Sequence record: NC_018835.1
From: Escherichia phage NJ01
Length of the DNA: 64,000 nucleotides
Reading direction: 5' to 3' (one strand)
Shown here: positions 25,965 to 26,988 of the stretch, in pieces
How positions within the stretch are numbered: position 1 is the first letter of the stretch
Layout of the letters: each line of letters starts with the position of its first letter
Translations under genes and position numbers: made by a program
The notes under the pieces: generated by a model
Databases searched by the model: none
What the model was told of the DNA's origin: nothing
What the model saw: only the letters and a program-made list of their open reading frames with translations

Positions 25965-26347
25965 TCTCCAGTGATTTCCATATCTGCTTTATCTCCTTTC
26001 TTAGTAAGGAGGATTGCTGGTTTATTCTTACTCTTCATATACTCAAACATGTGCATAGAACCTCTTGATTCCCCATCCCAGAAGACTATCACTGAATCTG
26101 CATACTCACCCATGTCTACGTTTCGAAGTATCCCAGCCTTTTTGCCGAGAGTATTCCACGATGGGATGAAACGTTTAATTGGGATATCATTATGCTTAGC
26201 AACAACTTCTCCGTGAAGATCTGGCCCTCTAGCACCACCTGACACTACTTCTGAAATGAGCTTAGGGATTTCTTCTGGAAGTAAAGTCCACATCTGAGTA
26301 AAAGAATGCCAGTCTATCGACCGGCTTCCTGCGATTATTACTTTCAT
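25955..26347 (-). CDS. SLOG/DUF2493-like nucleotide-binding protein
   Basis: 130 aa; MKVIIAGSR...SGGARGPD...GILRN...VIVFWDG pattern. Confidence 0.4.
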
Positions 26348-26988
26348 GTAATCAATCCTTGAAACTCTTCTTTATCGAAATGCTTCTCTACCACATACTC
26401 ATACAGATCTTTTAATTCTGCATAACGTCGGTAGAAAGTTCCATGTGACATGCCAATAGTTTTCTGAATGTGGTCATGGGGAATACCCAAGAAAATCATT
26501 GAGAACATATTAGCTAACTTCTGAGTATCCATCGTATCACTTAAATCTTGGAAGAAGTAGAAGATACGAGATTCCATGAACGGGTCGCCAACAGAGTCTT
26601 GCTTATCCATAGCAATCTCTAAAGGACTATCCACCATATCAGGAGTACGGAACATATCAGCCTCTGGAATAGAGTAGATACGACGGTCCCCTACAGTCTG
26701 CCTATTTGAGCGTATAGACCAGATAATGTTCTTGACTCGATAAGTCATATGCTCTTGGTCTTTCTCGTCCTCTAGGACTCTCTCATCCTGCTTAGCGAAG
26801 ACAAATCTCCAAGCGTTCAAGAGCACTTCCTGTGCCACATCTTCTGCTTCATGGTAATCTCTGATATCGTACATGAAGAACTTGTGAACCACTTTCCAGT
26901 TCACTCTGTAAAACTCTTCATAGTTTGAGATGTACTTAATAGGGATTCCATGAATGCGATATCTTGTAGGTGTTGTCTTCTTCGCCAT
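26344..26988 (-). CDS. phage-encoded sigma-70-family (ECF-like) sigma factor
   Basis: 214 aa; region-2-like [13 protein letters not shown] and C-terminal region-4-like [19 protein letters not shown]. Confidence 0.7.

Follow-up and report, generated by a model that had tools for sequence, protein, structure and literature searches.

Results

The gene and its protein

The minus strand at positions 26344-26988 almost certainly encodes a phiEco32-type sigma factor, an ortholog of gp36 that directs host RNA polymerase to phage promoters. The gene lies in the 64,000-nucleotide stretch of DNA analysed here (the window), whose source is a phiEco32-like E. coli podophage (Gordonclarkvirinae, Kuravirus). 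Records of 97 phages match the region, and the window aligns to phiEco32 from about 7059 to 69500 of that genome at 80-97% identity, with 90-97% over most of the length. The literature already covers the sigma factor, the promoter element that it uses, its coactivator and an atomic structure on RNA polymerase. What we show ourselves is how closely the sequence agrees, which residues are conserved, that the partner gene and orthologous promoter sites are present, and that profile and fold resemble those of ECF sigmas; for binding to polymerase, specificity for promoters and the structural mechanism we rely on published work on a 99.5%-identical protein. The gene and the domains of its product, with limits from PMC12276001, are as follows.

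26344-26988, minus strand: sigma factor gene, phiEco32 gp36 ortholog, 214 aa, ATG start
Residues ~1-103: N-terminal sigma-2-like domain
Residues ~104-137: linker
Residues ~138-214: C-terminal sigma-4-like domain

A first-pass annotation, made from the sequence alone, had placed a 214-aa phage sigma factor at exactly these coordinates, with the strand unstated; read on the plus strand, the same interval gives a translation riddled with stops. The minus-strand product shares 213 of 214 residues with phiEco32 gp36 (ABY52837, 'RNA polymerase ECF sigma factor'), the sole difference being R28 here for K28 there. A phmmer search of the PDB matches chain F of 9m7y across 214 residues, 213 of them identical (E=2.6e-145), and PHROG 1740, 'RNA polymerase sigma factor', matches residues 1-213 with E=2e-45. 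Labels for the ortholog are inconsistent: it is a 'hypothetical protein' in many of the 97 phage records and a 'sigma-H factor' in one, and a homolog from one metagenome source is named 'uncharacterized protein YerC'.

Much is known of gp36 itself. Mass spectrometry of RNA polymerase purified from infected cells identified gp36 and a second phage protein, gp79, and gp36 co-purifies with the polymerase (PMC12276001; PMC8948821). With E. coli core polymerase, gp36 forms a holoenzyme that transcribes the middle and late promoters of the phage (PMC12276001; PMC8948821); gp36 is called a middle gene product in the literature (PMC8948821). Six gp36-dependent promoters have been found experimentally, all with one common element, tAATGTAtA, and a start 6-8 bp downstream of it (PMC8948821). 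The 2025 cryo-EM structure (PDB 9m7y) shows E. coli RNA polymerase with gp36 and gp79 in an open complex at one of them, P68 (PMC12276001). There, the sigma-2-like N-terminal domain (residues 1-103) is seated on the clamp helices, the linker runs through the active-centre cleft, and the sigma-4-like C-terminal domain (residues 138-214) is seated on the flap-tip helix (PMC12276001). W90 and Y83 stack at the upstream fork junction, R84 touches the phosphate of -13A, and bases -14 to -11 are read by N95, S91, S94, E79 and H80; further upstream, R187 and Y186 recognise -37G and -34A (PMC12276001). Mutating the DNA-reading residues of gp36, or the bases that they read, impairs or abolishes transcription, and at P68 mutation of -37G or -34A abolishes it (PMC12276001). 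For its part, gp79 binds RNA polymerase, displaces region 4 of sigma-70 and clamps the C-terminal domain of gp36 with its N-terminal helix; it stimulates P26 and P68 three- to four-fold, P26 4-fold in vitro (PMC12276001). The first-pass annotation had the protein redirecting host RNA polymerase to phage promoters, and these experiments on the 99.5%-identical protein bear this out (PMC12276001; PMC8948821).

All 23 residues that PMC12276001 names as functional, in contacts with polymerase, with -10 and -35 DNA and with gp79, are kept in the 214-aa protein. They include the -10-reading residues E79, H80, Y83, R84, W90, S91, S94 and N95, the -35-reading residues Y186 and R187, and residues F146, M164, L167 and I169 of the gp79-binding groove. 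Eight of the ten promoter-reading residues (E79, Y83, W90, S91, S94, N95, Y186 and R187) are invariant in an alignment of the 19 family members, which reach down to 48% identity. Among the points against the identification are the substitution of R28 for K28 and functional data that come only from the phiEco32 protein.

The coactivator is encoded in the window as well. Searched by tblastn, phiEco32 gp79 matches 46243-45998 at 100% identity over 82 aa, and PHROG 8339 matches the ortholog with E=2e-56.

About 45995-46243, minus strand: gp79 ortholog, 82 aa

Promoters of the sigma factor

The motif that the first-pass annotation had singled out, TAATGTATAT, is the published gp36 promoter element tAATGTAtA (PMC8948821). 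It occurs 5 times in the 64 kb against 0.20 expected, a count reached in 0 of 100 shuffles, at 2047(+), 13650(+), 18878(+), 28346-28355(-) and 28419(+). We compared these sites with the promoters listed in Table S3 of PMC8948821, where P6, P13 and P26 are late and P40, P58 and P68 middle, and in the SU10 paper. Five of the six published gp36 promoters are found in the window at positions orthologous to those of phiEco32; the sixth, P6, lies upstream of the window start. All five have the same orientation as the gene that follows, whose start codon is 33-59 nt away.

2047-2055, plus strand: late promoter P13, core TAATGTATA, 33 nt before the ATG at 2089 (gp13 homolog)
18878-18886, plus strand: late promoter P26, core TAATGTATA, 37 nt before the ATG at 18924 (gp26 homolog, 1473 aa)
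28347-28355, minus strand: middle promoter P40, core TAATGTATA, 59 nt before the ATG at 28287 (gp40 homolog)
35118-35126, minus strand: middle promoter P58, core TAATGTATA (exact 9-mer), 36 nt before the ATG at 35081
39819-39849, minus strand: middle promoter P68, core AAATGTATA at 39819-39827, -35 block GGTAGTAGATAT at 39838-39849 (-37 to -26)

The P13 site corresponds to phiEco32 9101(+), ahead of gp13 at 9143, and the P58 site to 42937(-), upstream of gp58. P68, orthologous to phiEco32 46862(-), lies 39 nt before the ATG at 39779, and its core AAATGTATA has one mismatch to the motif; its block follows the same pattern of conservation as that of the candidate site at 28397-28427(+) described below. 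The P40 element is invariant in 10 phages of 3 genera. It is part of an imperfect palindrome at 28337-28355, TTATGTATA-A-TATACATTA, so that a one-mismatch copy of the promoter element stands on the plus strand, head-to-head with P40.

Four motif sites had been proposed as targets of the sigma factor, and three of them are the published P13, P26 and P40; the fourth, 28419, is absent from Table S3 (PMC8948821). The positions 2047 and 28419 were exact, whereas 18879 and 28345 were one base off, the latter belonging to a minus-strand site; the strands of the motifs had not been given. That list was also incomplete, as it lacked 13650(+), 35118(-) (P58) and the one-mismatch AAATGTATA at 39819(-) (P68).

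Genomic context

The sigma gene belongs to a tightly packed minus-strand string that runs from P40 through gp40, a terminator-like hairpin, an Rz-like spanin, an o-spanin, the sigma gene and gp35 to a dNMP kinase and an exonuclease. The sigma gene shares bases with both neighbours, at its start with the o-spanin stop (TAATG) and at its stop with the gp35 start (ATGA). Since the gene lies in the same string as P40 and about 1.3 kb downstream of it, the sigma factor would be able to reinforce its own expression, and P40-driven expression would give positive feedback. A strong terminator-like hairpin stands between the two, just after gp40, and sigma expression from P40 would therefore need read-through.

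27519-27502, minus strand: terminator-like hairpin, AGCCACC-TTCG-GGTGGCT followed by TTTTTT

In phage WFI101126 it is this hairpin after gp40 (27502-27519) that bears the annotation 'terminator'; it does not fall within the gp40-gp41 gap, and we set it aside as a feature of that gap.

Several differences from phiEco32 are evident around the gene. The macro-domain gene gp37 ('Appr-1-p processing enzyme'; phiEco32 34814-35268, against 26984-26991 here) is missing, so the sigma gene abuts the o-spanin gene and the two overlap by start and stop codon. On the other side, at 25428-25964 (minus strand), where phiEco32 encodes gp34, an ATP-binding protein of 297 aa, the window has an unrelated-looking protein of 178 aa, which matches PHROG 26149 'deoxynucleoside monophosphate kinase' and is called 'chromosome segregation protein' in several GenBank relatives. 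Nothing in phiEco32 corresponds to about 1 kb at 28834-29829 (minus strand), where one ORF, of 167 aa, is annotated in relatives as a phosphoesterase or Ser/Thr phosphatase and another, of 160 aa, encodes a putative HNH/AP2-like endonuclease. Further along, a perfect sigma-70 consensus promoter (TTGACA, 17-nt spacer, TG-extended TATAAT; 12/12) is found at 33509-33537 (minus strand), close to where the DNA polymerase-like gene (gp53 homolog) begins.

A candidate seventh promoter and a conserved non-coding stretch

The motif at 28419(+) is, from its sequence, probably a working gp36 promoter. The gp40 and gp41 homologs are separated by a gap of 315 bp, and the site is found there, about 64 bp from P40; it points away from P40 and runs opposite to all nearby genes. 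In phiEco32 the corresponding site is at 36704(+).

28397-28427, plus strand: candidate gp36-type promoter, GGTAGTAGATAT at 28397-28408, 10-nt spacer, TAATGTATA at 28419-28427, predicted +1 at ~28434
28434-28592, plus strand: conserved non-coding stretch, with a 5' hairpin at the predicted +1, GC-rich hairpins and a long stem formed by 28524-28537 with 28576-28589

Two readings of this site have to be weighed, each of which we regard as tentative. According to one, 28397-28427(+) is a seventh gp36 promoter that drives a non-coding transcript into a 160-nt stretch better conserved than the flanking genes; we put this forward as a possibility rather than an expectation. According to the other, which we also consider somewhat unlikely, 28419(+) is no working promoter but either a relic (for example, of a duplicated P68 upstream region) or a site conserved for another reason, the conserved block beyond it acting on the minus strand to end early transcripts ahead of P40 by termination or processing.

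The architecture of the site bears most directly on the choice. The 12-mer GGTAGTAGATAT has only two exact copies in the window, one at 28397-28408 and the other in P68, at the same spacing to the core. At 28397-28408, numbered as in PMC12276001, it covers -37 to -26, so that positions -37 and -34 are occupied by G and A, the two bases that R187 and Y186 recognise in P68. Identity of the -35 block to that of P68, where mutation of -37G or -34A abolishes transcription, argues against a non-functional site. So does the pattern of conservation: across 10 phages in 3 genera, GGTAGTAGATA and TAATGTATATA are invariant and the intervening 11 nt are free to change but keep their length, as is expected of a bipartite promoter. 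For the opposite view, the site is outside the six published gp36 promoters, being missing from the Table S3 list of PMC8948821, and the plus strand has no ORF downstream of 28419. The GenBank records of the relatives examined annotate no plus-strand feature at the gap. The indels that ECBP2 and MN05 carry within the non-coding stretch are not multiples of three.

The stretch downstream offers evidence of both kinds. A 5-bp hairpin starts exactly at the predicted +1 (~28434) and shows compensatory changes: one pair is UA or GC, another CG, UA or AU, and a third GC or G.U, where the G.U would be C.A on the opposite strand. The position of this covarying hairpin and its G.U pair favour a plus-strand transcript and speak against a block that serves the minus strand. 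Compensatory changes are restricted to this one short hairpin; the rest of the predicted structure is invariant and hence uninformative, which weakens the argument for an RNA. The plus strand folds more stably than the minus strand (alifold, -34.6 versus -28.0 kcal/mol), with z-scores of only -2.2 to -3.9. Read on the minus strand, on the other hand, the long stem (28589-28524) is followed by TTTTTAT and resembles an intrinsic terminator. A simple scan finds no terminator on the plus strand after 28434, a result limited by the loop length that the scan allows, which makes it blind to the long stem.

Across 28501-28592 identity amounts to 92-98%, against 82-84% for the adjacent gp40 coding DNA of the same phages. 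Here a direct repeat, TAGGGACT, occurs in two copies 10 bp apart, or one helical turn (28558-28575, plus strand), within a near-invariant block enclosed by the long stem. The repeat could be an iteron-like protein-binding site, or it could be part of the RNA stem. Scanning 28200-28800 with Rfam at E<=10 gives chance-level matches far below the gathering scores and no family. A search of viral contigs for the bipartite promoter arrangement recovers mostly the same isolates (phiEco32, ECBP2, KBNP1711), and so no added diversity for covariation; its extras are one near-identical metagenomic contig and one unrelated 14-kb contig.

If the seventh promoter does drive a non-coding transcript, this transcript could be a structured small RNA, an antisense RNA to the 3' ends of early or middle transcripts, or the primer of a replication origin. 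Among the results listed by a literature search, no paper names phiEco32 together with antisense RNA, small RNA or origin, and the Kuravirus and SU7 papers are silent on the gap; Pavlova 2012 lay outside the coverage of this search.

The copy of TAATGTATAT at 13650(+) is a different case. An exact 10-mer on the strand of the late genes (13650-13659), with a -35-like block, GGTATTTGATAT, nearby, it might be taken for an extra internal late promoter inside the gp21 homolog. We consider this improbable. The site is within coding sequence, and phiEco32 reads TCAACGTATAC there, so it is not conserved; the -35-like block is spaced by 6 nt instead of 10 and has G rather than A at -34. The motif at this position is probably a chance match, as far as sequence can tell, and with the phiEco32 TCAACGTATAC and the unfit -35 region in view we dropped it as a promoter.

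Placement in the sigma-70 family

Generic models recognise the protein poorly. The first-pass annotation had described a region-2-like segment and a C-terminal region-4-like helix-turn-helix. The former corresponds to residues 48-60 and lies inside the only Pfam match, Sigma70_r2 at residues 24-62, a match that for the single sequence reaches 19.1 bits (E=0.0011), short of the cut-off of 24. The latter is present as a stretch at ~173-188; the Pfam region-4 model gives no match to the single 214-aa sequence, but the sigma-4 fold is seen in the published cryo-EM structure. TIGR02937 (sigma70-ECF) aligns over residues 23-192 (profile positions 3-157 of 165) with 23 bits against a cut-off of 42.9 (E=4.8e-5), and the phmmer search of the PDB with the single protein finds nothing beyond the self-match to 9m7y. 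A lack of sigma-70 domain matches had been named as a refutation of the assignment; with the single sequence the outcome is borderline, all matches being below threshold, and comparison at the level of profile and fold supports the assignment.

The family is narrow, comprising 19 clusters without Pfam domains on record. Sigma70_r2 weakly matches all 19 members (best E 2e-4), Sigma70_r4_2 matches 2 of the 19, again weakly, and Sigma70_ECF also 2 of 19. When the family profile is searched against the PDB, six of the ten non-self matches are ECF sigmas (SigK, SigW, SigL, RpoE, SigE), all six aligning at residues ~22-61 with E=0.055-1.8.

Fold comparison extends the likeness to both domains. A single-sequence AlphaFold model was discarded for its mean pLDDT of 43; the alignment-based AF2 model has two confident helical domains (pLDDT 81-91, with 81-87 in the C-terminal domain) and a low-confidence linker at 98-131. 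Searched against the PDB with Foldseek, this model finds 9m7y_F at rank 1 (E=1e-24), and ranks 2-29 are almost all ECF sigmas, with 170-199 columns aligned and both domains covered. Probabilities are 0.9-1.0 for the top 14. Against sigmas other than 9m7y, E-values are modest (1e-3 to 1e-1) and TM-scores low (0.25-0.3), the latter because the relative orientation of the domains differs in the model; the isolated -35-binding domains 3hug and 3vfz match at TMt ~0.55.

The 214-aa protein has the two-domain architecture, with neither region 1.1 nor a sigma-3 domain. No anti-sigma gene is found beside the sigma gene, whose neighbours encode an Rz-like spanin, an o-spanin-like ORF, a GTP-binding-domain protein and the dNMP kinase. 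Published structure, profile and fold together place the protein as a very divergent two-domain ECF-like sigma (sigma-2 plus sigma-4) with an unusual -10 element. It was stated in 2022 that region-4 homology is absent from gp36; contrary to this earlier statement, the 2025 cryo-EM structure (PMC12276001) finds the C-terminal domain to be sigma-4-like on the flap-tip helix.

That the protein is instead a helix-turn-helix regulator (Trp-repressor/YerC-like or TetR-like) that acts without RNA polymerase, as the YerC name of a homolog in one source, a weak Foldseek match to the putative Trp repressor 3kor, a weak profile match of residues 165-204 to the TetR-type regulator 2eh3 and the sub-threshold scores of sigma models on the single sequence might suggest, is scarcely credible, being contradicted by a 99.5%-identical protein that has been solved in the sigma position on RNA polymerase (PDB 9m7y) and supports promoter-specific transcription in vitro, and by fold matches that are dominated by ECF sigmas with both domains aligned.

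Discussion

From the published structure and the residues kept here, a mechanism can be proposed for the sigma factor of this phage. The N-terminal domain would bind the clamp helices of E. coli RNA polymerase and would recognise and melt the -10 element AATGTA (centre -11.5) by means of E79, H80, Y83, W90, S91, S94 and N95. The linker would thread the active-centre cleft, and the C-terminal domain, placed on the flap-tip helix, would read the -35 region through Y186 and R187. The gp79 ortholog would oust region 4 of sigma-70 and hold the C-terminal domain of the sigma factor in place. Acting together, the two proteins are expected to divert transcription away from the promoters of the host and the early phage genes and towards the middle (P40, P58, P68) and late (P13, P26, P6) promoters, all six of which, including P6 outside the window, carry tAATGTAtA.

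The main finding adds no new biology; its value is that of a calibration point. Reading the sequence without tools was enough to pick out both the promoter motif and a sigma factor so divergent that it stays below the curated thresholds of Pfam and NCBIfam. The seventh promoter and its non-coding target are the only item that may be new. One caveat is that they may have been described before, as the 2012 promoter-mapping paper was outside our coverage. If the seventh promoter is real, the phage sigma factor would also drive a non-coding transcript, which is undescribed for this group in the accessible literature. A non-coding output would then be added to a well-studied phage transcription switch, a point of modest weight, and the site could point to a regulatory RNA or an origin of replication in phages with therapeutic use.

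Comparison with known systems

The closest system is that of phiEco32 gp36. It shares 213 of 214 residues of the sigma factor, the gene context (gp40, spanins, sigma, gp35), an identical gp79 and tAATGTAtA promoters at the same relative positions. It differs by K28, where R28 is found here, and by gp37, which in phiEco32 lies directly upstream of the sigma gene and is absent from the window.

SaPh711_gp47 of Salmonella phage 7-11 is likewise a phage sigma factor from the same phage group, and the late genes that it drives are at equivalent genome positions (PMC8948821). It is, however, only ~15% identical, and its promoter is the bipartite GTAAtg-(16)-aCTA (PMC8948821). Phage 7-11 also differs in having no middle gene class, and no shut-off of host sigma-70 is seen, which PMC8948821 attributes to the lack of a gp79 homolog.

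The bacterial ECF (group 4) sigmas, such as E. coli sigma-E, M. tuberculosis SigH, SigL and SigE, and P. aeruginosa AlgU, share the arrangement of sigma-2, linker and sigma-4 and likewise lack region 1.1 and sigma-3. They provide the best structural matches, and the region 2.1-2.2 motif aligns. In gp36, by contrast, the N-terminal domain has its helix alpha-1 rotated by ~70 degrees, the C-terminal domain has a shorter helix alpha-4, and the flap-tip helix binds in an orientation turned by ~100 degrees (PMC12276001). The gp36-type sigma also differs in a similarity that falls below curated thresholds, in AATGTA as its -10 element, and in a coactivator, gp79, that stabilises the C-terminal domain, with no adjacent anti-sigma gene.

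Finally, AsiA and MotA of phage T4 follow the same logic, in which one small protein disables region 4 of sigma-70 and a second gives new specificity, leading from early to middle transcription (PMC12276001). The two strategies part in what becomes of the host factor: T4 keeps and remodels host sigma-70, whereas phiEco32-type phages replace it by a sigma factor of their own (PMC12276001).
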